A stretch of DNA of 64,000 bases from an uncultured Actinomycetes bacterium (GTDB lineage: Bacteria; Actinomycetota; UBA4738; HRBIN12): positions 1,216,001-1,280,000 of the forward strand of contig OY969934.1 in the NCBI GenBank assembly GCA_963704725.1, given 5' to 3'. Below are positions 1-16,861 of the stretch, piece after piece (position 1 is the first letter of the stretch; every line of letters begins with the position of its first letter). Under the pieces are notes generated by a model, which made no database searches, had not been told where the DNA came from, and saw only the letters and a program-made list of their open reading frames with translations. A program made the translations under genes and the position numbers.

Positions 1-317
1 GGGTGGAGACCCGCCCGGCGGGCGACACCGTCGATCGCAGCCAGGTCGTCGTCGGTCATGGGCTCGCCCTGGTTCGCCCGGACCATGGCGTGGAGGGCAC
101 GGACGAGCTCGAGCGCGGTCTCCCGGTCGGGGTCGGAGAGCGGGGAGGCCCCGGGCATCAAGCCCCGCTCGTGCAGGAACCAGCCGAGCATCTCGCCGGA
201 CGGCGGGAGCTGCCCCTCGATCCCCTGGACGTGCTCGTGCAGGTTCGCGAAGCGCTGGATCAGCTCCAGATCCCCCGGCGCCGGGGGTGTTGTCTCGTGC
301 GCGGCGATGTCGAACAT
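1..317 (-). CDS. CGNR zinc finger / ABATE domain protein (N-terminal part; runs off the window start)
   Basis: Not in the ORF track. Manual translation from ATG 317: MFDIAAHETTPPAPGDLELIQRFANL...; the APGDLELxQxFxN start is typical of ABATE/CGNR proteins. TACACT -10-like hexamer 9 nt upstream. Confidence 0.65.
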   Translation of the reverse strand, partial: MFDIAAHETTPPAPGDLELIQRFANLHEHVQGIEGQLPPSGEMLGWFLHERGLMPGASPLSDPDRETALELVRALHAMVRANQGEPMTDDDLAAIDGVARRAGLH

Positions 318-422
318 GGCGAGGGCAGTGTACACCGACGAAACGGCTTGACGGGTTACCTGACGGGACCCAGGGAGCGCGCGGGTCTCTCGCGGTCGTC
401 CCCGTCGGTACCATCGGGAGCC

Positions 423-704
423 GTGATCGAGTTCACGCCGTGGGCCACCGAGATCCTGGGTCGCACCTTCTCCGCGGCCCGGCGCTTCAACCCTGACGTT
501 GCCGTGCGACTGCACCGGGACGGGAGCGGGGTGGCGTTCGCGCTGACGGACGAGGCGCACGAGGGCGACCGGCTGGTGCACGGGGAGGGGTTCGAGCTCT
601 GGGTCGAGGACGGCCTCGAGGGCACGGTCGACGTCGTCGAGCCGCACGACCAGCTCATCCTGCGCGCGCCGGGCGACCCCGAGCGCAGCGTCCACTCGCA
701 CTGA
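423..704 (+). CDS. Small HesB/IscA-fold-like protein lacking cysteines
   Basis: GTG 423 preceded by GGGAG and TACCAT; IEFTPWA..L....RL pattern resembles HesB-like proteins, but there is no Cys. Confidence 0.55.
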   Translation: MIEFTPWATEILGRTFSAARRFNPDVAVRLHRDGSGVAFALTDEAHEGDRLVHGEGFELWVEDGLEGTVDVVEPHDQLILRAPGDPERSVHSH

Positions 705-757
705 CCCGTCGTCGTCGGATCGACCCGGCGGCTCGCCGTTCTACACTTCCGCGCATC

Positions 758-1624
758 GTGATCTCCGGCGACGCTCCCGGCGACCGTCTCCGCCCCCTCG
801 GCGGCGGGGGCGCGGTCATGCTCATCGGGGGAGCGGAGGACAAGCTCCGCGAACGCGTCATCCTCACGCGCTTCGCCGAGGCGGCCGGTGGCGCCGAGGG
901 ACGCGTCGTCGTGATCTCGACCGCGTCGTCGCTGGGCGAGGTGGCCACGGAGCGCTACCGGACCCTCTTCTCGGCGCTCGGGATCGCCGACGTCGAGGGG
1001 ATCCGCCCGGAGGGGCGGGCCGAGGCCGACGACCCCGCCACGGCGAAGGCGCTCGCCGCGGCGACGGGCGTCTTCCTCACCGGCGGCAACCAGCTGCGGC
1101 TGTCCTCCGTGGTGGCGGGGACCAGGCTGGCCGACGCGATCCACCGCGCGCGGGACCGCGGCGCCGTTATCGCCGGCACCTCGGCGGGGGCCAGCGCCAT
1201 GGCCGCCCACATGATGGCGTTCGGACGGCCCGGCGAGAGCCCCCGGAACCGGATGGCGCAGATGGCGGCCGGCCTGGGCCTGCTCTCGGGCGTGGTGATC
1301 GACCAGCACTTCGCCGAGCGGGGGCGGTTCGGCCGCCTCCTGTCGGTGGTGGCCTACTCCCCGTCCCTCGTCGGCATCGGCCTGGACGAGGACACCTGCG
1401 CGATCGTGCACGGCGACCGGACGCTCGAGGTGATCGGGCGGGGCTCGGTCACCGTCGTCGACGGCTCGGGGGTCGTCACGGACGCACACCAGGCGAAGGG
1501 CCACCGGCCGTTCCTGGTCTCGGGCGTGGTGGTCCACTCGCTCCCGGCGGGGACGTGGTTCGACCTGCGGGCCCGCAGGCTCGTGGCCGGCGAGCCGGGG
1601 ATGGAGCGGGAGGCGTCCGAGTGA
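758..1624 (+). CDS. cphB: Cyanophycinase (peptidase S51)
   Basis: IGGAED, TGGNQ, GTSAG (catalytic Ser), DQHF (His) and GLDEDT (Glu) motifs; overlaps the cphA start. Confidence 0.95.
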   Translation: MISGDAPGDRLRPLGGGGAVMLIGGAEDKLRERVILTRFAEAAGGAEGRVVVISTASSLGEVATERYRTLFSALGIADVEGIRPEGRAEADDPATAKALAAATGVFLTGGNQLRLSSVVAGTRLADAIHRARDRGAVIAGTSAGASAMAAHMMAFGRPGESPRNRMAQMAAGLGLLSGVVIDQHFAERGRFGRLLSVVAYSPSLVGIGLDEDTCAIVHGDRTLEVIGRGSVTVVDGSGVVTDAHQAKGHRPFLVSGVVVHSLPAGTWFDLRARRLVAGEPGMEREASE

Positions 1625-4479
1625 CGGGCGGCCGGACCGGCTCGAAGGCCGAGCGCCGGCGCGCCAAGGGTGAGCCGGCGCAGAAGAAGCCGCCGCGGCG
1701 TCCCGACCTGACGATCGTCGAGACCCAGGTCTTCCGGGGGCCCAACTACTGGAGCTACGACCCGTGCATCCGGCTGCTCGTCGACCTCGGCTCGCTCGAG
1801 GCGTGGCCGTCGAACACGATCCCCGGCTTCGCCGAGGGTCTGCTCGAGCTCCTGCCCGGTGTGGGCGAGCACTCGTGCTCGCTCGGCCGCAAGGGCGGGT
1901 TCCGCGAGCGCCTCGTCGAGGGCACCTGGGTGGGCCACGTCGCCGAGCACATCGCGATCGAGCTCCAGCGCGAGTCGGGCGCCCACGTCTACCGGGGCAA
2001 GACTCGGGGCGCGGGCGAGCCGGGCCGCTACCACGTGATCTTCGGCTACTGGGAGGAGCGGGTCGGGCTCGAGGCGGGCCGGCTCGCCGTCCGGCTGGTG
2101 AACCACCTCGTGCGAGCCGAGGACGGGTTCGACTTCCCCGCCGAGCTCGAGCGGCTCATCCTGCTCGCCGAGCGGCGGGCGTTCGGGCCGTCCACCCAGG
2201 CCATCCTGGACGAGGCCGCGAGCCGCGACATCCCGTTCATCCGGCTCAACGAGTACTCGCTCGTGCAGCTCGGCTGGGGCAGGTTCCAGCAGCGGATCCG
2301 CGCCACGATGACGTCGAAGACGTCCTCGCTCGCGGTGGACATCGCCGGCGACAAGGACATGACGCGCCGGCTGCTCGCGTCGGCCGGGCTCCCCGTCCCC
2401 CGCGGGGAGATCGTCCTGACCGAGGACGCCGCCGTCGAGGCGGCCCGGCGGATCGGCTTCCCCGTGGTGACCAAGCCGCTCGACGGCAACCACGGGCGGG
2501 GCGTCGGGCTCGACCTGCGCATCGAGCGCGACGTGCGGCGGGGGTTCAAGCGCGCCCTCGAGCAGGCCCGGCGAGGCGACGTGGTCGTCGAGTCCTTCGT
2601 CACCGGCAACGACTACCGGGTGCTCGTGGTCGGGGGTCGCATGGTCGCCGTGGCCCAGCGCCTCCCGGCCCACGTGGTCGGCGACGGCGCGCACACGGTG
2701 GCCGAGCTCGTCGAGATCGCCAACCAGGACCCGCGGCGTGGCGTGGGGCACGAGAAGGTCCTGACGAGGATCAAGGTCGACGACGAGGCCGTCGCGCTGG
2801 TGAAGAAGCAGGGGTTCGCCGTGGACGACGTCCCGCCGGCGGACGCGTTCGTCAAGCTCGCCGCGACGGGCAACATGTCGACCGGCGGGATCTCGATCGA
2901 CCGCACGTGGGACGCGCACGAGGAGAACGTGGAGATCGCGGAGGAGGCGGCGCGGGTCGTCGGTCTCGACGTGGCCGGGATCGACTTCCTCACCCCGGAC
3001 ATCACGCAGCCGGTCCGCGAGACCGGCGGCGCGATCGTCGAGGTGAACGCCGCGCCCGGGTTCCGGATGCACACGCATCCCACGGAGGGCGAACCGCAGT
3101 ACGTGGCCAAGGAGGTCGTCGACCTCCTGTTCCCGCCTGGCACGCCCGCCCGGATCCCGATCGTCGCGGTGACCGGCTCGAACGGCAAGACGACGACCGT
3201 GCGGATGATCGCGCACATCTTCAAGGGGATGGGGCGGTCGGTGGGCTTCACGACCACGGACGGCGTCTACATCGACGAGCGCCTGGTGAAGCGCTCCGAC
3301 GCCAGCGGGCCGAAGTCCGCCCAGATGGTGCTGCAGAACCCGCGGGTCGACTTCGCGGTGTTCGAGACGGCTCGCGGCGGCATCCTTCGCGAGGGCCTGG
3401 GCTACGGCAAGAACGACGTCGCGGTGGTCCTCAACGTCACCGGCGACCACCTCGGGCTGAAGGGGATCGACACCCTGGAGCAGCTCGCCGCGGTGAAGCA
3501 GGTCATCGTGGAGGCCGTCCCCAAGACCGGGTGGGCGGTGCTGAACGCGGACGACCCGCTCGTGGTCGACATGCGCAAGGCGTGCAGCGGGAGCGTGATC
3601 CTGTTCTCGATGCAGGAGCGGCACGAGCTCATCGACCGGTGGGTGCGGCGCGGCCGCAAGGCCGTCGTGCTCGAGAAGGGACCGCTCGGCGAGATGATGG
3701 TGATGAAGGAGGGCCGGCGCACGACGCCGATCGCGTGGGTCCACACCCTCCCTGCGACCTTCGAGGGCCGGGCGCGGATGATGGTGCAGAACGCGATGGC
3801 CGCGGCCGCGGCGGCCCATGCCGCAGGTGCCCATCTCCACGACATCCGCCAGGGCCTGCGATCCTTCGCCACCTCGATCTACCAGGCGCCCGGCCGCCTG
3901 AACGTGTTCGATCTCGACGGCGTGAAGGTGGTCATCGACTACGCGCACAACCCGGCGGGGCTGGAGACGCTCGGCGACTTCGTGGAACGCTTGACCCAGG
4001 AGGCCCCGCAGGGTGCCCACCGCGGCGGCGGGTCGTGGACCGCCAACCTCCGCGTCGCGGTGGTCGCGACCGCGGGGGACCGACGGGACGAGGACATGCG
4101 GGAGCTCGGGCGCGTCGCGGCGCGCCACTTCGACGACGTGATCATCCGGGAGGACCGCAATCCCAGGGGCCGGCCCCGCGGGGAGACGGCGGCGCTCATC
4201 GAGGAGGGCGTTCGCGAAGCGGTGGCCGGCGGCGCCCGCGCCGGCAACGTCGAGGTCGTCCTGGACGAGATGGAGGCGACGCGGCGGGCCATCGACCGGT
4301 CCCGGCCCGGCGACCTCGTGGTGCTCTGCGTGGACTACGCCACCGAGGTCTTCCAGGAGCTGGAGCGGCGGCGACGGCTCGCCGCCCCCACGGTGATGCG
4401 CGCCGACGGCGACGGCCGGTGGGAGTCCGCCGGGGGCGATCCGGACCTGCTCGAGGTCGCCGACGAGCCCGGCCCGTGA
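1621..4479 (+). CDS. cphA: Cyanophycin synthetase CphA1 (N + ATP-grasp + Mur-ligase domains)
   Basis: RGPNYW, Cx19HxxEH (C...HVAEH), FGPST, KPLDGNHGRGV, EVNAAPGFRMH, GSNGKTTT, ETARGG, DYAHN; GTG 1621 overlaps the cphB stop (GTGA). Confidence 0.96.
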   Translation: MTGGRTGSKAERRRAKGEPAQKKPPRRPDLTIVETQVFRGPNYWSYDPCIRLLVDLGSLEAWPSNTIPGFAEGLLELLPGVGEHSCSLGRKGGFRERLVEGTWVGHVAEHIAIELQRESGAHVYRGKTRGAGEPGRYHVIFGYWEERVGLEAGRLAVRLVNHLVRAEDGFDFPAELERLILLAERRAFGPSTQAILDEAASRDIPFIRLNEYSLVQLGWGRFQQRIRATMTSKTSSLAVDIAGDKDMTRRLLASAGLPVPRGEIVLTEDAAVEAARRIGFPVVTKPLDGNHGRGVGLDLRIERDVRRGFKRALEQARRGDVVVESFVTGNDYRVLVVGGRMVAVAQRLPAHVVGDGAHTVAELVEIANQDPRRGVGHEKVLTRIKVDDEAVALVKKQGFAVDDVPPADAFVKLAATGNMSTGGISIDRTWDAHEENVEIAEEAARVVGLDVAGIDFLTPDITQPVRETGGAIVEVNAAPGFRMHTHPTEGEPQYVAKEVVDLLFPPGTPARIPIVAVTGSNGKTTTVRMIAHIFKGMGRSVGFTTTDGVYIDERLVKRSDASGPKSAQMVLQNPRVDFAVFETARGGILREGLGYGKNDVAVVLNVTGDHLGLKGIDTLEQLAAVKQVIVEAVPKTGWAVLNADDPLVVDMRKACSGSVILFSMQERHELIDRWVRRGRKAVVLEKGPLGEMMVMKEGRRTTPIAWVHTLPATFEGRARMMVQNAMAAAAAAHAAGAHLHDIRQGLRSFATSIYQAPGRLNVFDLDGVKVVIDYAHNPAGLETLGDFVERLTQEAPQGAHRGGGSWTANLRVAVVATAGDRRDEDMRELGRVAARHFDDVIIREDRNPRGRPRGETAALIEEGVREAVAGGARAGNVEVVLDEMEATRRAIDRSRPGDLVVLCVDYATEVFQELERRRRLAAPTVMRADGDGRWESAGGDPDLLEVADEPGP

Positions 4480-4820
4480 CGCCTCGGGACGAGGCGGGGA
4501 TCCGCTCGACCCTGGTCGACGAGCGCGACGGGCTCCGCGCGCAGCTCGGCGAGATCACGGCGGCGCCGCGCGATCCGATGGGGGCCGTCTCGTTCGGCAA
4601 GAGGGTGGGCGAGGGGACGACGCAGGCGGTCGAGCGCATCGCACAGGTCTCGGCGGCGAAGAACCTCGACGCGAAGCTCCGCGACGTCGAACGGGCGCTG
4701 GCCAAGCTCGACGAGGGCACCTACGGCGACTGCGACACGTGCGGCGGACGGATCGTGCCCGAGCGGCTCGAGGCGTTCCCCTGGGCGGTGCGGTGCATGG
4801 CCTGCGCGTCGGCGGGTTGA
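4476..4820 (+). CDS. TraR/DksA family C4 zinc-finger protein
   Basis: ALAKLDEGTYGDCDTCG..I..ERLEAFPWAVRCMAC; GTG 4476 overlaps the cphA stop (GTGA). Confidence 0.88.
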   Translation: MTPRDEAGIRSTLVDERDGLRAQLGEITAAPRDPMGAVSFGKRVGEGTTQAVERIAQVSAAKNLDAKLRDVERALAKLDEGTYGDCDTCGGRIVPERLEAFPWAVRCMACASAG

Positions 4821-4823
4821 GCG

Positions 4824-6539
4824 CTACGGCTCGTGCGGTGCGGCGGCCCGCGAGGCGCGCACGGACGCGACGAGCCGCCGGACGCTCGCGGGCGACAGCG
4901 CCGAGGCGCCGGCCCGGTCGAGCCAGGCGAAGATCTGCGTGCGCATGCCGAGCGCGGTGACGGCCACCACGTCGCCCCGCCGCGAACGGCCCACCATCCC
5001 CCGGAGCGCCGACAGCTCGTCCCCGTAGACGTCCACGGCCTCCGCGCCCCCGTCGAACGCCCCGAGGCGCAGGCGCTCCACGATGTTGTGCCGGTCCCGC
5101 CCTCGCAGGTACCGCAGCAGCTCGGACACCACCACGTGGTCGGCGCCCCGCGCGGCGCGGTAGGCGAACGCGTGCAGGATCTCGTCCGACCGGTCGCCGG
5201 CCGTGCAGATGGCCATCCAGATCTCGCGGCCCGCGCGCCGCAAGCCGTCGCAGAGCTCGACGAGTCCGAGCATGCCGGCCTCGTTGTGCGCGTAGTCGAT
5301 CACGACCACGCGGCCGTCGAGCCCGAACAGGTTGGCTCGGCCGGGGTTGCGCTCCGGGTCGAGGACGAAGGAGCGGAGGCCGCGCACGACGGCGGCGCGG
5401 GGCAGGCCGATGCCGAGAGCCGCGGAAGCGGCCTGCATCGCGTTCATCACGTTCGTGCTCGAGACCCCGGCGATCGTGACCGGGACGTCGGCCATGGACA
5501 CCAGGGCGTCCGAGGACCGGCCGTCGAGCACGGTCATCCACCCGTCGAGCGGGACCGTGGCCCGGCCCCCCTCGCCGAGCGTCTCGCGCACGGCGGGGTG
5601 GTCGGGGTCGAGCGAGCACAGCCAGGGCCGGCCCGTGGCGCCGCGTCGCATGGCCAGGACGCGGGGATCGTCGGCGTTCAGCACCGCCCAGCCTCCGGGC
5701 CGGGTGATCTTCGTGACGGACGCCTTGACCTCGGCGAGCTGATCGAGCGTGTGGACGCCGAGGAGGTCGAGATGGTCGGCCGAGACGTTCGTCACCACGG
5801 CGACGTCGTTGTGGAGCACGCCGATCCCTCGAAGGAGGATGCCGCCGCGCGCGGTCTCGAGCACCGCCACGTCGGGGTGCTGATCCAGGGCCGTGCGGGC
5901 GCCGCCGAAGCCGGAGTAGTCGCCCTCCTCGACGAGCTCGCCGTCGCCGCGGAAGACCCCGTCGGTCGAGGAGTACGCGACGGTCCGCCGCGCCGACCGG
6001 ACGAGGTGCGCGAGCAGACGGACCGTGGTCGTCTTGCCGTTCGTACCGGTGACCGAGACGACCGGGATCGTGGGGTCGCCGACCGTGGGCTCCTCACCGG
6101 GTTCGGCGGCCCGGACGCCTCGCGCCGCCTCGGCCAGGGCTCGCTCGACCGATCGCCGGGCGTCGATCGTGGCCAGGAGCGCCGCGACCGCCCGCCCCGC
6201 CGCCTCGGCCGTGCCCCGCCGCCTCCACGGGAACGCCACCACCACCTGGTCGCGCTCGGGTCCCGGCCGGCTCCGGACCGCGAGCCGGACCTCGCTGGCC
6301 CGCGCCAGCCGAGTGGTGATCGTCGCCGCGAGCCGGGCGACGGCTCGACGGCGCTGGTCCGAGCCCGGCCGCCCCGGTCTGCCGTTCGCCCCGACGCGAT
6401 CCGAGATCGCGGCGAACCGGTTCTCGGGCATGGCCATCCACGGACCGACCGCGAGCGTGAGCTTGATCGCGGGCCGAGGGAAGTAGACGTTCGGGCCCTC
6501 GAGCACCCGCAGCTCCACCAGCTCCGCCCGCGCCGCCAC
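4824..6539 (-). CDS. CphA-derived Mur-ligase protein: degenerate N domain + M domain, no ATP-grasp domain
   Basis: LEGPNVYFPRPAIKLTL resembles the CphA N-terminus, followed directly by VTGTNGKTTT, ETARGG, TNVSADHL, LNADD, PGR, DYAHN, GDR; TATCCT 6 nt before GTG 6539. Confidence 0.85.
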   Translation of the reverse strand: MAARAELVELRVLEGPNVYFPRPAIKLTLAVGPWMAMPENRFAAISDRVGANGRPGRPGSDQRRRAVARLAATITTRLARASEVRLAVRSRPGPERDQVVVAFPWRRRGTAEAAGRAVAALLATIDARRSVERALAEAARGVRAAEPGEEPTVGDPTIPVVSVTGTNGKTTTVRLLAHLVRSARRTVAYSSTDGVFRGDGELVEEGDYSGFGGARTALDQHPDVAVLETARGGILLRGIGVLHNDVAVVTNVSADHLDLLGVHTLDQLAEVKASVTKITRPGGWAVLNADDPRVLAMRRGATGRPWLCSLDPDHPAVRETLGEGGRATVPLDGWMTVLDGRSSDALVSMADVPVTIAGVSSTNVMNAMQAASAALGIGLPRAAVVRGLRSFVLDPERNPGRANLFGLDGRVVVIDYAHNEAGMLGLVELCDGLRRAGREIWMAICTAGDRSDEILHAFAYRAARGADHVVVSELLRYLRGRDRHNIVERLRLGAFDGGAEAVDVYGDELSALRGMVGRSRRGDVVAVTALGMRTQIFAWLDRAGASALSPASVRRLVASVRASRAAAPHEP

Positions 6540-6552
6540 GCGCGGAGGATAC

Positions 6553-7848
6553 TCAGGCCATCTCGCCCGCGTGATAACGCCGGAACGCCGGGACGGCCAG
6601 CGCGACGAGCCCGGCACCGGCCAGGGACAGCAGCCCGCCGGAGACCACCGAGATCGTGGGCGTGAAGGCCGACGCGACGAGGCCGGCCTCGAGGTCCCCC
6701 AGGCGCGGGCCGCCTGTCACCACGAGGATGTGGATCTGCGAGAGGCGGCCGCGCAGGGCGTCGGGCACCGTCACCTGCAGGATCGTGTTGCGGAACACGG
6801 CGGAGATCACGTCGGCCCCGCCGGCGAACGCGAGGCACAGCAGCGCCAGCCACAACCGGTCGCCGACGAGCCCGAACGCCGTGATGCCCGCGCCCCACAG
6901 CGCGACCGACCAGATCACCGCCAGTCCCTGATGGCGGACGCGACCCACCCAGCCGGTCGTCAGCGCGGCTACAAGGGCGCCCGCCGCCGGCGCCGCGAGG
7001 AGGAAGCCGACGATCGCCTCGCCACGGTGGAACTGCAAGACCGCGAGGAACGTGTACAGCGCCCGGGGCAGGCCGAACACCATGGCGATGACGTCGATGA
7101 CGAACGTCGACTGGAGCACCGGGCGGCCCCGGAGATAGGCGAAGCCCTCGCGGACCGCGGGCCATCCGGTGGGAGCGCCGGGGACGCGGTCCGGGGGCAT
7201 CCGGGGCAGGCGGATCGCCGCCCACAGCATGGCCAGGGCGCTCACGAGGTCGACGCCGTACGCCCACGGGAGGTCGTACCGGGCGATCACGATCCCCGCG
7301 ACGGCGGGACCGGCCAGCGCCGTGGCGTTGAAGACGACCTGGTTCAGCGCGGCGGCCGCGGGGAGCAGATCGACGCCGATCAGCCGCGGCGTCATCGCGG
7401 TCCGCACCGGCGAGTTGATCGACGACTCGGCCGCCAGCAGCGCGACCGCGGTGTAGATGACCCAGAGGGGCGGATGCCGATGGAACGCTCCGGCCAGGAG
7501 GATGCCGACCGCGACCATGTACGTCAGCTGCGCGACGACGAGCGTCGAACGCCGGTCGTAGACGTCCACGAACGTCGCGCCGACCAGCGTGCCCAGGATC
7601 AGCGCGACGAGGCCGACGAGGCCCGTCATCCCCACCGCGACCGGCGAGTGCGTCAGGCGGTAGACCTGGATGAGGATCGCGACGAGCGTGAACTGGTAGC
7701 CGAACCCCCAGAAGAGCAGCCCGAGCCACAGTCGCCGGAAGTCCTTCGACGCTCGCAGCGGCGACAGATCGACCGCGATCCGGCGAACCCAGCCGCCCAC
7801 CCCGGCGTTCGGAGGCGGTGCGATCGGCTCGGGCGCCTCCGAGGACAT
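6553..7848 (-). CDS. MFS transporter (EntS/MFS_3-like)
   Basis: About 12 hydrophobic segments, DxYDRR loop, LRGR motif, FRRLW N-terminus. Confidence 0.88.
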   Translation of the reverse strand: MSSEAPEPIAPPPNAGVGGWVRRIAVDLSPLRASKDFRRLWLGLLFWGFGYQFTLVAILIQVYRLTHSPVAVGMTGLVGLVALILGTLVGATFVDVYDRRSTLVVAQLTYMVAVGILLAGAFHRHPPLWVIYTAVALLAAESSINSPVRTAMTPRLIGVDLLPAAAALNQVVFNATALAGPAVAGIVIARYDLPWAYGVDLVSALAMLWAAIRLPRMPPDRVPGAPTGWPAVREGFAYLRGRPVLQSTFVIDVIAMVFGLPRALYTFLAVLQFHRGEAIVGFLLAAPAAGALVAALTTGWVGRVRHQGLAVIWSVALWGAGITAFGLVGDRLWLALLCLAFAGGADVISAVFRNTILQVTVPDALRGRLSQIHILVVTGGPRLGDLEAGLVASAFTPTISVVSGGLLSLAGAGLVALAVPAFRRYHAGEMA

Positions 7849-7894
7849 GGGCCGACGCTAGCAGGCGCGCCCGGCCGAGCTTGGGTCGCAGGCC

Positions 7895-9235
7895 CTACGC
7901 GGATTCGGCGGCGATCGCCTCGTCGAGCACGGCCAGGCCCTCCTCGAGGAGGCCCTCGTCGATCGTGATCGGGGGAAGGAGCCGGATCACGTTGTCGTAC
8001 GTGCCCGCCTTCAGGATCACCACCCCGTTCTCCAGGCAGCGGCGCACGATCCGCGAGCCGGCGGCGCCGTCGAGGGGCTCCTTCGTGGTGCGATCGGCCA
8101 CCAGCTCGATCGCGTTCATCAGGCCGCGGCCGCGCACGTCGCCGATCATCCGGTGGCGGACCTGCATCTCGGCCAGGGTCGATCGCATCTGCACGCCGAG
8201 CGTGCGCGAGCGCTCGAGCAGGCCCTCGCGCTCGATCTGGTCAAGGACCGCGAGCGCCGCCGCGGCGGCGACGGGGTTGCCGCCGTAGGTTCCCCCCAGC
8301 GCCCCGACGTGCGCCGCATCCATGATGTCCGCGCGACCGGTGACCGCGCTGATGGGCAGCCCGCCGCCGAGCGACTTGGCGCTCGTGACGACGTCGGGCA
8401 CGACGCCCTCGTCCTCGATGGCGAACCACCGGCCGGCCCGTCCCATCCCGCTCTGGATCTCGTCCGCGACGAACACGATGCCGTGCTCCCGGCAGAACGC
8501 GGCGAGACCCTCGAGGAAGCCCGGCGCCGGGACGATGAAGCCGCCCTCGCCCTGGATCGGCTCGACGATCACGGCCGCGATGTTCTCCTCGCCGATGTGC
8601 TTGTGCATCTCGTCCCTCGCGTACGCCAGGGCCTCCTCCGCGGCCCGGTCCGGGCCGCCCGGCCAGCGGTACGGATACGCGTACGGCAGGCGGTAGATCT
8701 CCGGAGCGAACGGCCCCATGCCCTGCTTGTACGGCATCACCTTGGCGGTGAGGGACATCGCCATGAACGTCCGCCCGTGGAACGCGTGGTCGAACGTGAC
8801 GATCGCGGAGCGCCCCGTGGCCCTCCGGGCGATCTTCACCGCGTTCTCGACCGCCTCGGCGCCCGAGTTGGCGAGCATCGTCTTCTTCGCGAAGTCGCCC
8901 GGAACGATGGCGTTCAGGCGCTCGGCGAGCTCGATGTACGGCTCGTTCGCCGTCACGTGGAAGCAGGAGTGGGTGTCGAGCTCGAGCTGCCGTTGCGCCG
9001 CTCGCACGACCTCCGGCGCCGTGTGGCCGACGTTCAGCACGGCGATGCCGGTGGCGAAGTCGATGAGACGGTTGCCGTCGACGTCCTCGATGATCGAGCC
9101 GGAGGCGCGGGCGGTGACGATCGGATGCATGTTCGACACGCCGAGCGGCACGGCCCTGGCCCGGCGCTCGAACCACTCCCGCGACCGCGGTCCGGGGATC
9201 TCCGTGACGACCTTGCGCTCCTGCGGGATGTCCAT
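7895..9235 (-). CDS. gabT: 4-aminobutyrate--2-oxoglutarate aminotransferase (class III PLP)
   Basis: NSGAEAVENAVKIAR, FHGRT, EPIQGEGG, ADEIQSGMGRAG, SAKSLGGG, GGTYGGNP; ATG 9235 with GAGGAGG SD. Confidence 0.9.
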   Translation of the reverse strand: MDIPQERKVVTEIPGPRSREWFERRARAVPLGVSNMHPIVTARASGSIIEDVDGNRLIDFATGIAVLNVGHTAPEVVRAAQRQLELDTHSCFHVTANEPYIELAERLNAIVPGDFAKKTMLANSGAEAVENAVKIARRATGRSAIVTFDHAFHGRTFMAMSLTAKVMPYKQGMGPFAPEIYRLPYAYPYRWPGGPDRAAEEALAYARDEMHKHIGEENIAAVIVEPIQGEGGFIVPAPGFLEGLAAFCREHGIVFVADEIQSGMGRAGRWFAIEDEGVVPDVVTSAKSLGGGLPISAVTGRADIMDAAHVGALGGTYGGNPVAAAAALAVLDQIEREGLLERSRTLGVQMRSTLAEMQVRHRMIGDVRGRGLMNAIELVADRTTKEPLDGAAGSRIVRRCLENGVVILKAGTYDNVIRLLPPITIDEGLLEEGLAVLDEAIAAESA

Positions 9236-9326
9236 CGGTGGCCTCCTCAGCGCTCCGCGTGACGAGTGTGCCCGTCCGCCGGGCGGCCTGTCAGGCCGTT
9301 CCCCGACCAAGGAGGCCGAGCCGGTT

Positions 9327-9394
9327 TGTACGGCCCGTCCACGTGGCCCCACCGGGGCGGCCGTTCGACGGCAGGGTTCTGTACGGTTCGTACA
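9327..9394. promoter_or_regulatory. Two putative PucR-family operator boxes (TGTAC-N5-GTCCA 9327-9341; TGTAC-N5-GTACA 9380-9394) and -10 TACAAT 9391-9396
   Basis: Palindromic boxes 53 bp apart in the divergent gabT/pucR intergenic region; the same motif recurs at 12647. Confidence 0.65.
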
Positions 9395-9402
9395 ATCGGG
9401 GC

Positions 9403-10953
9403 GTGGCCCTCACCGTCGGCGACATCCTGCGCGTCCCCGGGCTCGCGCTCCGGCTCGTCGCCGGGGAGGCGAGCCTGTCCCGCCCGGTCCGGTGGGTCCA
9501 CAGCTCCGAGCTCGAGGACCCCACGCCATGGCTGAAGGGCGGGGAGCTTCTGCTCACCACCGGGGCGGGGATCGGTGTGTCGCCCGCCAAGCAGCGCGCC
9601 TACGTCCAGCGCCTGTCCGCCGCCGGCCTGGCGGGCCTGGGGTTCGGCCTGGGCTTCGGCCACGACAAGGTCCCGCGTGGGCTGATCACCGCGGCAGAGC
9701 AGGCCGCGTTCCCCTTGTTCGAGGTGCCCTACCCGGTCCCGTTCATCGCGATCACCGAGGCCGTCTTCACGCGCCTGCTCTCCGAGCAGTACGACATGCT
9801 GCAGCGGGCCGTGGATGCCGAGCACGTGTTGACGCGGGCCGTGCTGGACGGCGGCGGCCTCGCCGCCATCGCCTCGTCGCTGGCGCGCGTGACCGGGGGG
9901 TGGGTGCTCCTGCTCGACCTGCACGGCGTCCCGCTGGCCGAGACGTCGGCCGCCGCCCGCCAGCGGGCGCCGCGGATCTGGGAGGAGCTGCGCAGCACGC
10001 GTCCCGAGGCCACCGGGTTCAGCCTGACCCTCGTCGACCGCGGCCAGAGCGTGTGGGTCCAGCCGGTCGGCGCCCAGGGCCGGACCGAGGCGTTCCTCGC
10101 CGTCGGCGCGCTCGAGCCCCTGTCACAGGTCGATCGCATCGTCTGCGGCCACGCGCTGTCCCTGTTCGCCATCGAGATGGCCAAGTCCCGGGCGGTGGCC
10201 GAGGCCGAGCATCGGCTCCAGGGAGACTTCTTCGACGCGCTCACCCGGGGGACGATCCCGCCCGGCGACGTCACCCGGGGGCTGGCGCGGTTCGGGTTCC
10301 CCCGCGACGGCCGGGTGGTGGTCGTCGCGCTCGAGACGTCCGGCGATGTCGAGGCCCTGGCCTACGCGGCCGAGGACCGGCTCTCGCGGGCCGGCGGGCC
10401 CTTCCTCGTCTCCGGCGGCGATCGGGAGGTGGACGTGCTCGTCCCGTCGGACCACGCGCTCGGCGTCCGGGAGCTCCGCGTGAGCGTCGCCGAGCGGTTC
10501 GGGGGCGCCGACCTGCGGGCGGGGGCCGGCGGGGCCGTCGCGCCCGCCGAGGCCGGGCGGAGCCTCCGGGAGGCGCGCTACGCGCTGCAGGTGTGCCGGC
10601 TCGAGGGGTGGGAGGCGGCCGGGTTCGAGGACCTGGGGACGTACCGGCTGCTGCTGTCGATGACGGACCCCGACGCGCTCCGGGCCTTCGCCGACTCCCT
10701 GCTCGAGCGGATCGACGCCTACGACCTCGAGCACGGAGGCGAGCTGCAGGCCTCGCTCCGGGCGTTCCTGCAGCACAACGCGAGGTGGGAGACCGCCGCC
10801 GCCGACCTGTACGTGCACCGGCACACGCTGCGCTACCGCATGCGCAAGGTCGAAGAGCTCACCGGGCGCGATCTCTCCTCGAGCTTCGACCGCATGGAGT
10901 TCTGGCTCGCGCTGCGCGCGCGCGAGCTGCTCGCCACGCCCCCGGACGCCTGA
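9403..10953 (+). CDS. PucR family transcriptional regulator
   Basis: VRWVHSSEL.DPTPWLKGGELLLTTG N-terminal domain; C-terminal HTH LYVHRHTLRYRMRKVEELTG. Confidence 0.93.
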   Translation: MALTVGDILRVPGLALRLVAGEASLSRPVRWVHSSELEDPTPWLKGGELLLTTGAGIGVSPAKQRAYVQRLSAAGLAGLGFGLGFGHDKVPRGLITAAEQAAFPLFEVPYPVPFIAITEAVFTRLLSEQYDMLQRAVDAEHVLTRAVLDGGGLAAIASSLARVTGGWVLLLDLHGVPLAETSAAARQRAPRIWEELRSTRPEATGFSLTLVDRGQSVWVQPVGAQGRTEAFLAVGALEPLSQVDRIVCGHALSLFAIEMAKSRAVAEAEHRLQGDFFDALTRGTIPPGDVTRGLARFGFPRDGRVVVVALETSGDVEALAYAAEDRLSRAGGPFLVSGGDREVDVLVPSDHALGVRELRVSVAERFGGADLRAGAGGAVAPAEAGRSLREARYALQVCRLEGWEAAGFEDLGTYRLLLSMTDPDALRAFADSLLERIDAYDLEHGGELQASLRAFLQHNARWETAAADLYVHRHTLRYRMRKVEELTGRDLSSSFDRMEFWLALRARELLATPPDA

Positions 10954-10968
10954 GGCCGGCCGGCCCCG

Positions 10969-12471
10969 CTATCCGCGCCCGCCGCCCATGACGGCGCCGT
11001 GCCAGTCCTTCTTCGCCTTCCCCGAGATGTCGGCCATCACGTGCCGCACCGTGGTGAACTCCTCGATGGCGTACTGGGACATGTCCTTGCCGAAGCCCGA
11101 CTGCTTCACGCCGCCGTGCGGCATCTCCGACACGATCGGGATGTGGTCGTTGATCCACGTGTTCCCGAACTCGAGGCGTCGCGAGGCGTCGAGCGCGCGG
11201 TAGACGTCCCGGGTCCACACCGAGCTCGACAGCCCGTACGCGCAGTCGTTGGCCAGGGCGATCGCCTCGTCGTCCCGCTGGAAGGGGAGCGCCACGAGCA
11301 CGGGGCCGAACACCTCCTGCTGCACGATCTCCGAGTCCTGCGCCGCGTCCACGACGACCGTGGGCTCGAAGTACCAGCCCCGGTCCGTGCCCGGCGCCGC
11401 CGGCCGGGACCCGCCGGCGACGACCTTGGCCCCGGCGGCCCGCGCACGCCCGACGAACCCCTCGACGCGGTCGCGCTGGGCCGACGTGATGAGCGGCCCC
11501 ATGTCGGTGGCCGCGTCGAGGGTCGGCCCGACGGTGAGGTCGCGGGCCAGGTCGGCCACGGCGGCCACGAAGTCCTCGAACAGCGGCTGCTGCACGTACG
11601 CCCTGGTGGCCGCGGTGCAATCCTGCCCGCAGTTGATCGTCGAGCCGGCGATCGCGCCCCTGGCGGCCGCCTCGAGGTCCGCGTCGTCGAACACGATGAA
11701 CGGCGCCTTCCCCCCGAGCTCGAGGTGCACGCGCTTCACGCCGTCGGCGGCCGCCCGCATCACGCGCTTGCCGGTCTCGGTGTCGCCGGTGACGCAGACC
11801 ATGCGGACGTCGGGATGCGCGATCAGCGCGGGCCCGATCTCCGCGCCCCGTCCCGTGACGACGTTGAGCACGCCGGGCGGCAGGCCGGCCTCGGCGCAGA
11901 TCTCGGCCAGCTCGAACGCCGACAGCGGCGTCTCCGTGGCCGGCTTCATGACCACGGTGTTGCCCGCGGCGAGCGCCGGGAAGATCTTCCACACCTCGAT
12001 CTGGAACGGGTAGTTCCACGGACAGATCGCGACGACGACGCCGAGCGGGTCGCGACGCAGGAAGCTCAGGTGGTCGGGGGAGTACTCGCCGGCGGCCTTG
12101 CCCTCGAGCGTTCTCGCCGCGCCGGCGAAGAACCGCACGTTGTCGGCCCCGAAGGGGATGTCGAAGTTCGTCGTGAGCCTGATCGGCTTCCCGGCGTCGA
12201 TCGACTCGAGCCGGGCGAGCCCCTCGAGCCGCTCCTCGATGAGATCGGCCACCCTGAGCAGGACGCGGGCGCGGTCGGCCGGGGGGATGCGGCTCCACCG
12301 CCCGTCACTGAATGCCTCGCTCGCGGCCTCCACCGCCAGGGTCGCGTCGGCGGGCCCCCCGGCGGCGATCGTCGCGACCCGCTCCCCGGTCGAGGGATCG
12401 GTCACCGGCAACCGCTCGGCCGAGGTGCCCGGCACCCACCGTCCCCCGATGAACAGCTCGAGCTCACGCAT
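10969..12471 (-). CDS. Aldehyde dehydrogenase (gamma-aminobutyraldehyde dehydrogenase-like)
   Basis: [22 protein letters not shown] (catalytic Cys), EVFGPV, EMPHGGVKQSGFGKD; ATG 12471 with AAGGAGG SD. Confidence 0.9.
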   Translation of the reverse strand: MRELELFIGGRWVPGTSAERLPVTDPSTGERVATIAAGGPADATLAVEAASEAFSDGRWSRIPPADRARVLLRVADLIEERLEGLARLESIDAGKPIRLTTNFDIPFGADNVRFFAGAARTLEGKAAGEYSPDHLSFLRRDPLGVVVAICPWNYPFQIEVWKIFPALAAGNTVVMKPATETPLSAFELAEICAEAGLPPGVLNVVTGRGAEIGPALIAHPDVRMVCVTGDTETGKRVMRAAADGVKRVHLELGGKAPFIVFDDADLEAAARGAIAGSTINCGQDCTAATRAYVQQPLFEDFVAAVADLARDLTVGPTLDAATDMGPLITSAQRDRVEGFVGRARAAGAKVVAGGSRPAAPGTDRGWYFEPTVVVDAAQDSEIVQQEVFGPVLVALPFQRDDEAIALANDCAYGLSSSVWTRDVYRALDASRRLEFGNTWINDHIPIVSEMPHGGVKQSGFGKDMSQYAIEEFTTVRHVMADISGKAKKDWHGAVMGGGRG

Positions 12472-12646
12472 CGTCGGTCCTCCTTGGCGTCCGTCGCGAG
12501 GACCCCGCCGCGGGTGGGGACCTCTCGCGGCCGAGCCTAGGAACGGGGCGAAGCGCCGGACAGGGACGTTGGGCCCGCCGCCCGCCGCCGCGAGACCTTG
12601 CAGGGCCGTGCTCGGTCGGAGTGGGGCCCACCGGGGCGGGGAGGGA

Positions 12647-12661
12647 TGGACCGACCGTACA
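12647..12661. promoter_or_regulatory. Third putative PucR-family operator box (TGGAC-N5-GTACA)
   Basis: Matches the boxes at 9327 and 9380; lies between the divergent ALDH genes. Confidence 0.55.
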
Positions 12662-12780
12662 GGCCGGCGCCGGTGCGTGGCCGGTGTGGCGGGTGGCTCG
12701 CGCGCGGGGTGGTTGGGCATACTTGGGCTGTTCCGGCGTTCGGCGACCCGGGCTCGAGGCCCGACCGAGGAGGAGGATCG

Positions 12781-14226
12781 ATGGCCACCGAGAACAAGAC
12801 GTGGCAGCAGTACATCGGCGGGCGATGGGTGGGCTCGGGCATGGGCGAGAGCGAGCCCGACATCAACCCGGCCACCGCTCAGAGCGTCGGGACGATCCAG
12901 GTGGGGACGCGCGAGGATGCCGACGCGGCGGTCGCGGCGGCGCAGAAGGCGTTCGACGAGGTCTGGTTCGACACGCCGCCGAAGGAGCGCTCGGCGATGA
13001 TGTTCAAGCTCGCCGACGCCATGGAGGCCGACGCCGAGAACCTGGCGCAACTCGAGGCCGAGGACGTCGGCAAGCCGATCTCGGTCTCTCGCGCCGACGT
13101 GCCCTTCATCATCGACAACCTCCGCTTCTTCGCCGGCGCGGCCAGGCACCTCGAGGGCAAGTCCACCGGCGAGTACGAGAAGGGCTTCACGAGCATGATC
13201 CGCCGCGAGCCGCTCGGCGTGACCGCGGGCATCTGCCCGTGGAACTACCCGCTCATGATGGCGATCTGGAAGCTCGGCCCCGCCCTCGCCGCCGGGAACA
13301 CGTCGGTCCTCAAGCCGGCGGAGATCACGCCGCGGACGACGCTGCGCGTCGCCGAGCTGTCGCAGGACATCCTGCCGCCCGGCGTGCTGAACGTGATCAC
13401 CGGGCACGGCTCGGAGATCGGCGACCAGCTGGTGAAGCACCCCCTGGTGCGGCTCGTCTCGGTCACGGGCGACACGGCGACCGGCAAGGTCATCGCGGCC
13501 AACGCCAGCGCGGCCAACGTCAAGCGGTGCCACCTGGAGCTCGGCGGCAAGGCCCCGGTCGTCGTGTTCGACGACGCCGATCTCGACAAGCTCGTGGAGA
13601 CGCTGAAGTTCGCCGGCTACACGAACACCGGGCAGGACTGCACGGCGTCGTGCCGCGTCGTGGCGGGGCCGGGGATCTACGAGGACCTGCTCTCCAGCCT
13701 CGTCCCGGTCGTGGAGTCGATCAAGGTCGGCGACATCGAGGACGAGGACGTCGAGATGGGGCCGCTGGTCTCGAGCGGCCAGCGCGAGAGCGTGGCGGGG
13801 TTCGTGGACCGGGCGCAGACCGCCGGGGCGAAGGTCCTCACAGGCGGTGAGGCTCTGGACCGGGCCGGCTTCTACTACAAGCCGACCATCGTCTCCGAGC
13901 CGGCCCAGGACGCCGAGATCGTCCAGAAGGAGGTCTTCGGTCCGGTCGTGACCGTGCAGCGGTTCGGCGACGAGGACCAAGCCGTGGCGTGGGCGAACGA
14001 CGTCGTCTACGGGCTCGCGTCGTCCGTGTGGACCCGGGACGCCGCGCGCGCGATGCGCGTGGCCCGTCGGCTCCAGTACGGCGCGGTGTGGGTCAACACC
14101 CACTTCATGATCACGGCCGAGATGCCGCACGGCGGCTACAAGGAGAGCGGGTACGGCAAGGACATGTCGATGTACTCGCTGGAGGATTACACCCAGATCA
14201 AGCACGTGATGTGGTCGCTCGACTGA
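12781..14226 (+). CDS. Gamma-aminobutyraldehyde dehydrogenase (PatD/YdcW-like ALDH)
   Basis: [53 protein letters not shown]; GAGGAGG SD before ATG 12781. Confidence 0.9.
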
Positions 14227-14259
14227 CGACCCGTTCCGCGAACCCGAGGGGTGATGACG

Positions 14260-15684
14260 ATGACACGTCCGTTCCTGGTCAACGGTGAGTGGCGCACGGG
14301 TGAGGGGACGTTCGAGGTCCGGAGCCCGTACGACGACAGCGTGGTCGCCGACGTGGGGGTTCCCACCGCGGCCGACGTCGAGGAGGCCGTGGCGACGGCC
14401 GTCACCACGTTCCGCGAGTCGCGCCGCTTGCCGGTGCACGCGCGGGCCGACGCGCTCGACCACATCTCGGCCCGCCTCAAGGAGACGATCGACGAGAACG
14501 CCGAGCTCATCGCCAAGGAGGGCGGCAAGCCGCTCAAGTGGGCGAAGGTCGAGGCGACCCGGGCCGTCTCGACCTTCCGGTGGGCGTCCGAGGTCCTGCG
14601 CCACGGCGACGACGAGCTCATGCGCCTCGATACGGAGGCGTCGTTGGGCTCCCGGGTCGGTCTGCTCCGGCGGTTCGCGTTCGGGCCGGTGCTCGGCATC
14701 ACCCCGTTCAACTTCCCGCTGAACCTGGTGGCGCACAAGGTGGCGCCCGCGCTGGCCGTCGGCGCGCCGATCGTCGTCAAGCCCGCGTCGGCGACGCCGG
14801 TCGGCTCGCTCCGCCTGGCGGAGCTGTTCATGGAGACCGACCTGCCCAAAGGGATGTACCAGGTGCTCCCGGTCCGCAGCTCGGTCGCCGACGGGATGGC
14901 CCGGGACGAGCGCTTCCGCAAGATCAGCTTCACCGGCTCGTCGGACATCGGCTGGTACCTCAAGGGCCTCGACCCGAAGAAGCGGGTGACCCTCGAGCTC
15001 GGCGGAAACGCGGCGGTGATCGTGCACTCGGACGCCGACCTCGACCTCGCCGCTCAGCGGGTCGCGGTCGGCGGGTACTACCAGGCCGGCCAGAGCTGCA
15101 TCAGCGTCCAGCGGGTGCTCGTGCAGTCCGAGGTCTACGAGGACTTCGGGAACCGCCTCGTGAAGCAGGTCGAGAGCCTGAAGGTCGGCGACCCGATGGA
15201 CCCGACCGTCGACGTCGGCCCGGTGATCCAGCGCTCGGAGGTGGAGCGGATCGACGGCTGGGTGAAGGAGGCGGTCTCGCAGGGCGCGACCGTGCTGACC
15301 GGGGGCTCGGGCGAGGGTCCACTCTACCAGCCGACCCTCATCGCGGACGTGAACCCCGACATGAAGGTCTGCCGCGAGGAGATCTTCGGTCCGGTCGTCA
15401 CGATCAGCCCGTACCAGACGTTCGAGGAGGCGCTCGCGATCGTCAACGACTCGCGGTTCGGCCTGCAGGCCGGCGTGTTCACCAACGACATCAACCGGGC
15501 GTTCGAGGCCCATCGCTCGATCGAGGTGGGCGGCGTCATCATCAACGACGTGTCGGCGTACCGCGCGGACCAGATGCCGTACGGCGGCTCGAAGGACTCC
15601 GGCTTCGGCCGCGAGGGGCTGCGGTTCGCCATGGAGGAGATGACCGAGCCGCGGATCATGGTCCTTTCGCACGTCCCGCTGTGA
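14260..15684 (+). CDS. Aldehyde dehydrogenase family protein
   Basis: ITPFNFPLNLVAHK, SFTGS, LELGGNA, AGQSCISVQR, EIFGPV. Start could be 14251, 14254 or 14260; SD spacing favours 14260. Confidence 0.9.
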   Translation: MTRPFLVNGEWRTGEGTFEVRSPYDDSVVADVGVPTAADVEEAVATAVTTFRESRRLPVHARADALDHISARLKETIDENAELIAKEGGKPLKWAKVEATRAVSTFRWASEVLRHGDDELMRLDTEASLGSRVGLLRRFAFGPVLGITPFNFPLNLVAHKVAPALAVGAPIVVKPASATPVGSLRLAELFMETDLPKGMYQVLPVRSSVADGMARDERFRKISFTGSSDIGWYLKGLDPKKRVTLELGGNAAVIVHSDADLDLAAQRVAVGGYYQAGQSCISVQRVLVQSEVYEDFGNRLVKQVESLKVGDPMDPTVDVGPVIQRSEVERIDGWVKEAVSQGATVLTGGSGEGPLYQPTLIADVNPDMKVCREEIFGPVVTISPYQTFEEALAIVNDSRFGLQAGVFTNDINRAFEAHRSIEVGGVIINDVSAYRADQMPYGGSKDSGFGREGLRFAMEEMTEPRIMVLSHVPL

Positions 15685-15696
15685 TCGCGTCCTGAG

Positions 15697-16861
15697 GTGG
15701 GAACGCCGATCGCGGTCCTCGGGGCCGGCGCGATGGGGAGCGCGGCCGCGACGCTCCTCGCGCGCCACCGCGGCGAGGTGGACCTGCTCGTGCTCGACGT
15801 GGACGAGGGTCGCGCCCGCGCCGTCGCCGAGCGCGCCGGCGGCCGGGGACGGGGGTTCGACGCGCGTTCGGGCGAGCTGGCCGGGCTCCTGTCCGAGGTC
15901 CGCGCCGTGGCGGCCTGCCTCCCGTACCGCCTGAACCTCGAGGTGATGGAGGCGGCGCTCGCCGCCGGATGCCACTACGCGGATCTCGGGGGCCTGTTCC
16001 ACGTCACCCGGAAGCAGTGGGAGCTCCACGAGCGCTTCCGCGAGGCCGGCGTGTCGGCGGTGATGGGCATCGGGTCGGCGCCCGGGCTCACGAACGTCCT
16101 GGCCCGTCGCGCGGCGGACCGGCTCGACGTCGTGGTCTCGATCGACCTGGTCGACGGGGCGGTCGACCTGACCGCGGACGGCGGCGCCTTCGGCGTGCCG
16201 TACTCGCTCGACACCATCCTCGACGAGTTCACGGAGCCGGCGATGGTGTTCGAGGACGGGGAGCTGCGAGCGGTGCCGGCCGGGAGCGGGGTGGTCGACT
16301 GGACCTTCCCCGAGCCCGTCGGGGTGCAGCCCGCGATGTACACGCTCCACTCGGAGCCGGCCACGCTGCCTCGGACGATCGCCGGGGTTCGCGACGTCCG
16401 GTGGCGGCTCGCGCTGCCGCGCGCGGTGCACGACGGCTTCGCGCTCCTGGTCGGGGTGGGGCTCGCTTCGCGCGAACCCGTCGACACGCCGGGCGGGTCG
16501 GTGGCGCCGCGGGACCTGCTCGCCGCGGTGCTCGCCCGGCTCCCGGCCGACGACGCGCCGCCGCGGGACGTCGAGTTCCTCGACGTTCGGGCGACGGGGG
16601 AGCGGGGCGGAGCGACGGCCACCGTGCACGAGCTGGCCCGGTTCGACCCGGCGCCCGAGGGGCTGTCCGCAGGCGCGTTTCGGCACGGCGATCCCCATCG
16701 CCGTCTCCGTCCGGTGGCAGGCGGCCGGCCGCGTGCCGGCCGGCGTGCATCCGCCCGAGAGCGCGTTCGACCCCGAGGCGTTCGTCGCCGAGCTGGAGCG
16801 GGAGGGCGTCGGGTTCTCCACGGACGGCGCGGGTCGAGCGGAGGGCGCCCGGCCGTTCTAG
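15697..16861 (+). pseudogene. Saccharopine dehydrogenase family protein with a 1-nt frameshift at ~16678-16680
   Basis: Rossmann GAGAMG, HYADLGG, GIGSAPG, YSLDTILDE, HSE. Removing one T from GCG TTT CGG restores GAFGTAIPIAV...GVHPPESAFDPEAFVAELEREG ending at TAG 16859-16861. Confidence 0.75.

Follow-up and report, generated by a model that had tools for sequence, protein, structure and literature searches.

A paralogue of the cyanophycin synthetase CphA1 that consists of the N-terminal (N) and Mur-ligase (M) domains, without the ATP-grasp (G) domain, is encoded beside cphA1 in a stretch of 64,000 nucleotides (nt) from an uncultured Actinomycetes bacterium (contig OY969934.1, positions 1,216,001 to 1,280,000; the whole stretch is called the window below). 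We refer to this protein as NM. NM belongs to a genuine and conserved family that has so far gone unstudied: literature searches, in which subscription journals are mostly not covered, and look-ups of matching terms in PMC10206079 and PMC11915815 gave no account of a G-less CphA paralogue. The M domain apparently is, from its conserved residues, a catalytically competent, ATP-dependent ligase of the Mur type. We consider it rather likely that NM acts as a ligase on cyanophycin or on intermediates of it, and lean, by a smaller degree, towards the narrower reading that it would be a free-standing side-chain ligase of the CphA lineage working on Asp-ended cyanophycin chains or on short intermediates. 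The synthesis of cyanophycin, a nitrogen-storage polymer, has been described as the work of CphA1 alone, or of CphA2 for recycling; since a third enzyme of the CphA lineage accompanies CphA1 in nearly all sampled carriers from two large soil phyla, a part of the non-cyanobacterial pathway appears to have been overlooked. The features of the gene, in window positions, are:

4824..6539, minus strand: gene of NM, the G-less CphA paralogue (571 amino acids (aa); GTG start at 6539, TAG stop at 4824-4826)
6069..6539, minus strand: N domain, residues 1-157, of CphA-type fold, with the GPN loop G15, P16, N17
4905..6068, minus strand: M domain, residues ~158-545, with CphA-type Mur-ligase core and lid
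6027..6047, minus strand: P-loop GTNGKTT, residues 165-171; K169/T170 correspond to TeCphA1 K499/T500
5772..5777, minus strand: D255-H256 of the TNVSADHL motif, corresponding to SuCphA1 D585/H586

The open frame of the NM gene spans 4824..6617 on the minus strand. Read from the GTG at 6539, its product is identical to a public protein (100% identity and coverage, 571 aa), and its start position is matched by its relatives in an alignment of 27 full-length NM sequences, confirming the gene at 4824..6539 that the original prediction had called from the sequence. The motifs quoted in that prediction (GTNGKTTT, ETARGGILLRG, TNVSADHL, LNADD, PGR, DYAHN and GDR) are all seen in the translation. In Pfam, NM matches Mur_ligase_M (PF08245; 68.9 bits against a gathering score of 24) and Mur_ligase_C (PF02875; 35.7 bits against 28.4), and at E up to 0.01 it matches no ATP-grasp family, nor PF18921, nor DUF4938 (PF16292). 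The CphA1 of the window, in contrast, matches Cyanophycin_syn, RimK, CPSase_L_D2, ATP-grasp and both the Mur M and C families. The cyanophycin synthetase model TIGR02068 (model positions 1-862) aligns to NM over positions 477-847 only and reaches 335.6 bits where the cut-off is 850. By BLASTP, NM and the window's CphA1 are 42% identical in the M domain and have a weak N-terminal match of 41 residues at 32%, and the N region of NM (~157 aa) aligns to the CphA1 N domain in hhalign (99.1%, E 6e-19, 139 columns), in agreement with the CphA-type N-terminus that had been proposed. Together, Pfam, TIGR02068 and hhalign show that the architecture was read correctly as an N-like region and a Mur ligase without a G domain, the converse of CphA2.

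Compared with CphA1 (TIGR02068; PDB 7LG5, 7LGJ, 7LGQ, 7TXV, 7WAC-7WAF), NM therefore has the same N fold, M core and lid, the same ATP, Mg and catalytic residues, the same arrangement of N and M, and the same locus. It differs in lacking the whole G domain (about 320 aa) and the Cx19HxxEH site, in its sub-threshold TIGR02068 score, and in belonging to an old clade of its own that is marked by distinct lid motifs. CphA2 is described as a cyanobacterial enzyme with an active G domain, a truncated and inactive M domain, and an N domain without the peptidase motif (PMC10273328, PMC9262961). NM and CphA2 are both reduced proteins of the CphA lineage without the N-domain peptidase motif and with a single working site (a predicted one in NM), but the reduction is opposite, as NM lacks G and its M domain is full-length with intact catalytic residues. 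NM also differs in distribution, being found in Actinomycetota and in genomes labelled Chloroflexota.

The N domain has kept its fold and lost its peptidase signature. The Cx19HxxEH motif is found in 0 of the 27 NM family members, as against 12 of 14 aligned CphA1 sequences; this zinc-peptidase motif is present in 83% of CphA1 according to PMC9262961, making it typical and not obligatory. The only strongly conserved element of the NM N domain is the first hairpin with the GPN loop (R11, L13, G15, P16, N17, P23). Because this hairpin corresponds to the hydrophobic loop of SuCphA1, in which Y14 and I17 touch the M domain (PMC9262961), we infer that the N domain is retained mainly for its structural contact with M and to wall the polymer cleft on one side. 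The earlier statement that the N-domain site had been replaced by Arg-rich sequence holds in its first half: the site is gone throughout the alignment, but the Arg-rich character is limited to close kin (net charge of the N domain +10 in the NM of the window; family median -5, range -19 to +10). An Arg-rich N domain as a hint of an acidic substrate was therefore rejected, since a lineage-specific charge cannot serve as an argument. With the primer-generating peptidase site lost and the ligase kept, NM might make primers or dipeptides, the first ligations being slow steps for CphA1 (PMC9262961). However, the CphA1 of the window has Cx19HxxEH, and such enzymes prime themselves (PMC9262961), so that a helper seems unnecessary and we hold this role to be improbable.

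The predicted structure places NM with CphA1. An AlphaFold2 model built from the 27-sequence alignment reached a predicted local distance difference test (pLDDT) of 94.3 and a predicted template-modelling score (pTM) of 0.92. Its best Foldseek matches were CphA1 chains, with template-modelling (TM) scores of 0.78-0.80 normalised to the query (7lg5_A: E 4e-37, TM 0.78), compared with a TM of about 0.53 for MurE. In VIA-align, the model superposed on 7txv_A with a Z of 41.1 and 523 aligned residues (model 5-546 on chain 1-872), and on 7lgq_A, a complex with an Asp-analogue-terminated chain, with a Z of 37.1 and a root-mean-square deviation of 3.4; the best MurE gave a Z of 27.1. From this superposition, N and M match CphA1 as one unit. 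When the NM family profile was run on solved chains, CphA1 reached 468 bits and MurE about 124, and no solved structure of the NM family appeared in that search.

The active site of the M domain is conserved throughout the family. G165, T166, N167, K169, T171, E228, D255, H256, N288, D291, R401, D415, H418, N419, G448, D449, R450 and R479 are invariant in 27/27 sequences, and G168 and T170 are conserved in at least 90% of them. These invariant residues include or adjoin the counterparts of the ATP- and Mg-binding residues N497, K499, T500, E558, R731 and H748 of TeCphA1 (PMC9427784), and they include the pair D255-H256, whose equivalents in SuCphA1 inactivate the M domain when changed to Ala (D585/H586; PMC9262961). 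The NM and CphA1 M domains have 54 conserved positions in common. Positions specific to the NM group are G213 in place of Ser and E420 in place of Pro, as well as L236 where CphA1 has Arg, possibly owing to a shift by one residue.

The family is large. Of 8000 scored candidates, 7983 matched at E ≤0.001, a number that includes CphA1 and other Mur-ligase relatives; the best 120 of the 8000 were all ~520-600 aa long and 73-100% identical to NM. A library clustered at 50% identity contained 1099 representatives at E ≤1e-30, with full-length relatives down to 35% identity. We sorted the best 150 representatives with alignment-built hidden Markov models (HMMs) into four groups, namely the NM family, a second class of ~570 aa whose N region has diverged further, proteins that join a canonical CphA1 N domain to M, and partial-G forms. 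In a quickly built maximum-likelihood tree of 70 M domains (LG+G4; support from the Shimodaira-Hasegawa-like approximate likelihood ratio test (SH-aLRT) only; root placed on the long-branched MurE of the same genome), 23 of the 25 picked sequences formed one clade, that of NM (SH-aLRT 99). P0266 falls inside CphA1 and P0265 at the base of the tree. The NM clade is sister (support 93) to a clade (85) that holds all 19 CphA1 rows together with the canonical-N and partial-G forms, and the second class forms a more basal clade (99). Because the actinobacterial CphA1 rows lie deep within the CphA1 clade, NM is not a recent deletion product of the adjacent cphA1. The branching of the NM family agrees with that of the CphA1 proteins of the same loci at the coarse level sampled. 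Judged by its sequences, the NM family is a large, old clade of the CphA lineage, and its current names, 'cyanophycin synthetase' and 'Mur ligase family protein', are both wrong.

The same data bear on whether NM could be an ordinary MurE, MurF, Mpl, FolC or CapB ligase, or a decaying cphA remnant, unrelated to cyanophycin. NCBI calls the relatives only 'Mur ligase family protein', and there are weak matches to MurE, MurF and FolC models. These matches, however, lie far below the cut-offs (85-86 bits against 257-373 for the best MurE models, TIGR01085 and NF0011xx, the highest being 86 against 373; 51 against 163 for FolC), and both the family profile on solved chains and the tree group the M domain with CphA and not with MurE or FolC, bearing out the assignment in the original prediction. 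NM and MurE do have the Mur_ligase_M and Mur_ligase_C folds in common, with ATP-dependent acyl-phosphate chemistry (predicted in NM), but no Mur N-terminal UDP-binding domain was found in NM, NM lies outside MurE in the tree, and its genomic context is cyanophycin and not the dcw cluster. M-only matches occurred in 0/360 and 0/261 genomes without CphA1 (samples described below). Decay fits poorly with invariant catalytic residues and with thousands of relatives at roughly 35-83% identity. We regard both forms of this explanation as very improbable.

Other G-less proteins of the CphA lineage came out of the same sorting. The second class (P0184, P0186, P0187 and others) likewise combines an N-like region with an M domain, and its N region is homologous to that of NM (hhalign 96.9%), but the class is separate and more basal. 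P0186 matches DUF4938 (PF16292) with 102 bits; P0265, at 30.9 bits, stays below the cut-off of 32. Second-class genes adjoin cphA1 downstream and in the same direction at G294:C29:8985-10151 (locus L090) and G327:C29:4875-6008 (L091), and the names found for second-class proteins in the clusters are only 'cyanophycin synthetase' or 'UDP-N-acetylmuramyl tripeptide synthase'. P0218, P0228, P0241, P0262, P0255 and P0266 have a canonical CphA1 N domain (PF18921 in P0228, E 1e-42) and M with little or no G, and they nest in the CphA1 clade beside proteins that are full-length or have a partial G domain; either they have lost G independently or their gene calls are truncated. P0129 (745 aa) is an NM family member fused to a C-terminal tetratricopeptide repeat domain (PF12688), and P0144 (972 aa) has two CphA-type M domains in tandem.

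Across Actinomycetota, the NM gene is strongly tied to cphA1. In a sample of 401 genomes, an M-only match was found in 37 of the 38 that had a CphA1 over the cut-off and in 0 of the 360 without CphA1, counts to be read with the facts that only two or three candidates were scored per genome and that related genomes are not independent. Two unpublished genomes (G088, G332) are included; without them the count is 35/36. The exception, G398, is a 270-contig assembly with cphA1 at a contig end. Three further genomes with fragmented CphA1 were uninformative because both scored candidates were those fragments. In 29 of the 360 genomes without CphA1, the ATP-grasp part of TIGR02068 was matched alone (for example G069, G256 and G216; ~174-221 bits at model positions of about 113-496), which presumably reflects another ATP-grasp ligase family. 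All but one of the 37 M-only genes (36/37) lie on the cphA1 contig within 12 kb, 33 of them within 5 kb. We fetched and classed 35 of the 37, of which 33 belong to the NM family and two to the second class (G294, G327). Among the 33, both domains were recognised in 30, M only in two (one truncated at a contig end, the other a short 442-aa frame), and one gene is split in two frames. The split copy (G293:C21:79000-81700, L123) occupies open frames of 684 and 322 aa, and the short one (G365:C9:264000-266300, L122) has its M domain on the 442-aa frame only; these two may be frameshifts, assembly errors or decaying copies. The genome of the window itself, a single contig of 3.45 Mb, has one CphA1, one NM paralogue and a separate MurE-like locus.

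A second sample of 301 genomes was drawn from the phylum of locus L011, labelled Chloroflexota. There, an M-only match was present in 33 of 39 CphA1 carriers and in 0 of 261 others. Twelve of the 33 matches were classed, eight as NM-type N+M proteins and four as a 542-aa form unlinked to cphA1. This 542-aa subclass (L084-L087, in G465, G453, G628 and G549, genomes of about 6 Mb) has an M domain closer to NM than to CphA1 and a barely recognisable N region, and its genes are far from cphA1 or on another contig. Loci L011, L018, L020, L039 and L045, labelled as other phyla (Chloroflexota/Chloroflexi; 'Candidatus Acidoferrum'), carry both genes, with 58-62% identity to the window for the paralogue and 69-71% for CphA1. 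In the tree, both genes of L011 fall within the clades formed by the closest relatives of the window's genes, which suggests that the two were transferred together or that there is an error of binning or labelling.

The neighbourhood was compared over 73 related loci. Downstream sequence of 7.5 kb or more was available for 42 of them, and it contains cphA1 in 27 and cphB in 25. All 36 copies of cphA1 seen are convergent to the NM gene, at a median gap of 574 nt (range 24-5429). The flank lacks cphA1 in the other 15 loci; we searched further for three of these and found it in 3/3 at 8-16 kb on the same contig. In an all-against-all clustering of open reading frames from the 73 loci, only cphA1 and cphB were common across lineages. 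Other conserved partner genes were rejected, because the upstream genes vary by lineage: close kin have a major facilitator superfamily (MFS) transporter and a class-III aminotransferase (gabT in the window), and Nocardioides-type loci have an ATP-binding cassette exporter, moaA, dodecin, fabG and fabI. The MFS gene precedes the NM gene in 21 of 67 related loci with at least 1.5 kb of upstream sequence and the aminotransferase in 22 related loci, with L065 also in that cluster; both clusters contain close kin of the window. In the window, the neighbouring genes are:

758..1624, plus strand: cphB, cyanophycinase (TIGR02069, 245.8 bits against a cut-off of 126.6; Peptidase_S51)
1621..4479, plus strand: cphA1, complete N+G+M cyanophycin synthetase (TIGR02068, 1169.8 bits against a cut-off of 850; Pfam)
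4476..4820, plus strand: traR, DksA/TraR-type C4 zinc-finger gene, whose GTG overlaps the cphA1 stop (GTGA)
6553..7848, minus strand: MFS transporter (EntS/MFS_3-like), directly upstream of the NM gene, with its stop 13 nt before the NM start
7895-9352, minus strand: gabT, of the gamma-aminobutyrate (GABA)/putrescine set
9238-10953, plus strand: PucR/CdaR-type regulator, of the GABA/putrescine set
C-terminal part of the open frame 10969-16821, minus strand: aminobutyraldehyde dehydrogenase, of the GABA/putrescine set

From the fold, architecture, active-site conservation, lineage and cphA1 link given above, we infer the substrate, product and physiological role of NM as follows. NM keeps N and M in the mutual arrangement of CphA1. 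In CphA1, the cleft between N and M holds the Asp-terminated chain while M activates the terminal Asp by phosphorylation of its beta-carboxylate and attaches L-Arg there. Without a G domain, NM cannot extend the poly-Asp backbone; it would most likely work in trans on chains of the adjacent CphA1, loading a side-chain residue onto Asp-terminated ends. L-Arg would be the default amine and another amine is conceivable; that the amine joined is Arg we rate somewhat below an even chance. The gene faces cphB-cphA1-traR from the other strand and probably has a leaderless promoter of its own.

Several observations weigh against this proposal. First, the CphA1 of the window itself has an intact M domain, so that another Arg ligase would seem superfluous and its advantage is hard to explain; possible uses are the finishing of released intermediates, work at low Arg, another amine, primers, or the joining of CphA1 oligomers. 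Second, the lid motifs differ from those of CphA1: an aromatic residue follows GD in 22 of 23 NM members, neither the Arg after GDR nor the K/R-E-D of CphA1 is kept, and a Tyr is inserted before LRGR. Third, the NM gene follows an MFS transporter and the GABA/putrescine cluster, which could indicate another substrate. Fourth, 6 of the 39 CphA1 genomes of the second phylum show no M-only copy, and in six large genomes of that phylum the copy is not near cphA1, lying on another contig in G465, G453, G594, G504 and G549 and 3.8 Mb away in G628. The absences of the M-only gene on which the association draws are, moreover, soft because of the two or three candidates scored per genome. At last, the sequencing runs with NM sequence were three DNA runs (0.06 of sampled words each) and no RNA run.

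The lid motifs presumably lie where the incoming amino acid binds, the equivalent motifs of Mur ligases being those that select it (compare the DNPR motif of MurE), and their changes possibly reflect a different nucleophile. NM would then have a changed amine specificity, and the pair of CphA1 and NM would make a mixed or capped polymer. That the NM-specific differences from CphA1 sit in the lid motifs fits this alternative, as does the presence of gabT, a PucR-type regulator and an aminobutyraldehyde dehydrogenase near the NM gene in the window, and with CphA1 already an Arg ligase, a new specificity would explain why both genes are kept. The 54 conserved M positions common with CphA1 argue the other way, and the Y-(L/R)-RGR form also occurs in 2 of the 19 CphA1 rows, which weakens the case for a different nucleophile; the amine-catabolism neighbours, furthermore, are confined to close kin, and Nocardioides-type loci have fabG, fabI, moaA and dodecin instead. 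On balance, a changed specificity seems unlikely to us. We are equally doubtful of its broader form, in which soil Actinomycetota and Chloroflexota would run a two-enzyme system and NM would add a non-Arg residue (Lys, Orn, citrulline or a polyamine) or cap or repair chain ends; if it were true, the native polymer of abundant, mostly uncultured bacteria would differ from textbook cyanophycin.

Strict co-occurrence with CphA1 would also be expected if NM were a subunit of CphA1 oligomers, providing extra M sites or regulating chain length, and not a free enzyme. NM keeps Mcore, which touches Gcore of other protomers in the CphA1 tetramer (PMC9427784). The two genes are convergent, however, so that the proteins are not co-translated, and the six second-phylum genomes with a copy away from cphA1 (five on another contig, one at 3.8 Mb) speak against it too; a subunit role appears less likely still than a changed amine. 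A free-standing side-chain ligase is our preferred reading of NM. The protein is small, confidently predicted and found in cultured Nocardioides and Terrabacter, making the proposal readily testable, and if NM does change or complete side-chain loading, it would offer a handle for cyanophycin of altered composition.

A candidate promoter lies directly before the NM gene:

6546..6551, minus strand: TATCCT, a -10-like TANNNT hexamer 6 nt before the GTG; candidate leaderless promoter

Leaderless transcripts of actinobacteria are laid out with a -10 hexamer just before the start codon, and nothing resembling a Shine-Dalgarno sequence is apparent before the NM GTG. Among 21 loci compared upstream, which are mostly close kin, a TANNNT hexamer (TAAGCT, TATGCT or TACCCT) stands 6-7 nt before an in-frame GTG or ATG in 12, as judged by eye, and one further locus has TATAGT at 10 nt before the start. 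The -10 element that had been assigned to the gene is thus present at 6546-6551 and kept in 12/21 loci, which makes a promoter of its own plausible. A scan of 4300-8000 for sigma-70 and terminator consensus found nothing; as it needs a -35 box, the sigma-70 scan has no bearing on a leaderless promoter made of a -10 only. With 13 nt between the end of the MFS gene and the NM start, co-transcription by read-through is possible as well.

In the opposite direction, the convergence of the NM gene on cphB-cphA1-traR was confirmed. GTGA start/stop overlaps occur at cphB/cphA1 (1621-1624) and cphA1/traR (4476-4479), and because these GTG starts overlap the preceding stops, the three genes look translationally coupled. 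The frame of cphA1 is open from 1555, and the GTG at 1621 overlapping the cphB stop is likely its start. Upstream of the MFS gene, the GABA/putrescine catabolic set occupies window positions 7895-12400. The stops of traR and NM (4818-4826) are 3 nt apart, without a terminator-like hairpin between them, so that the transcripts of the two genes may overlap.

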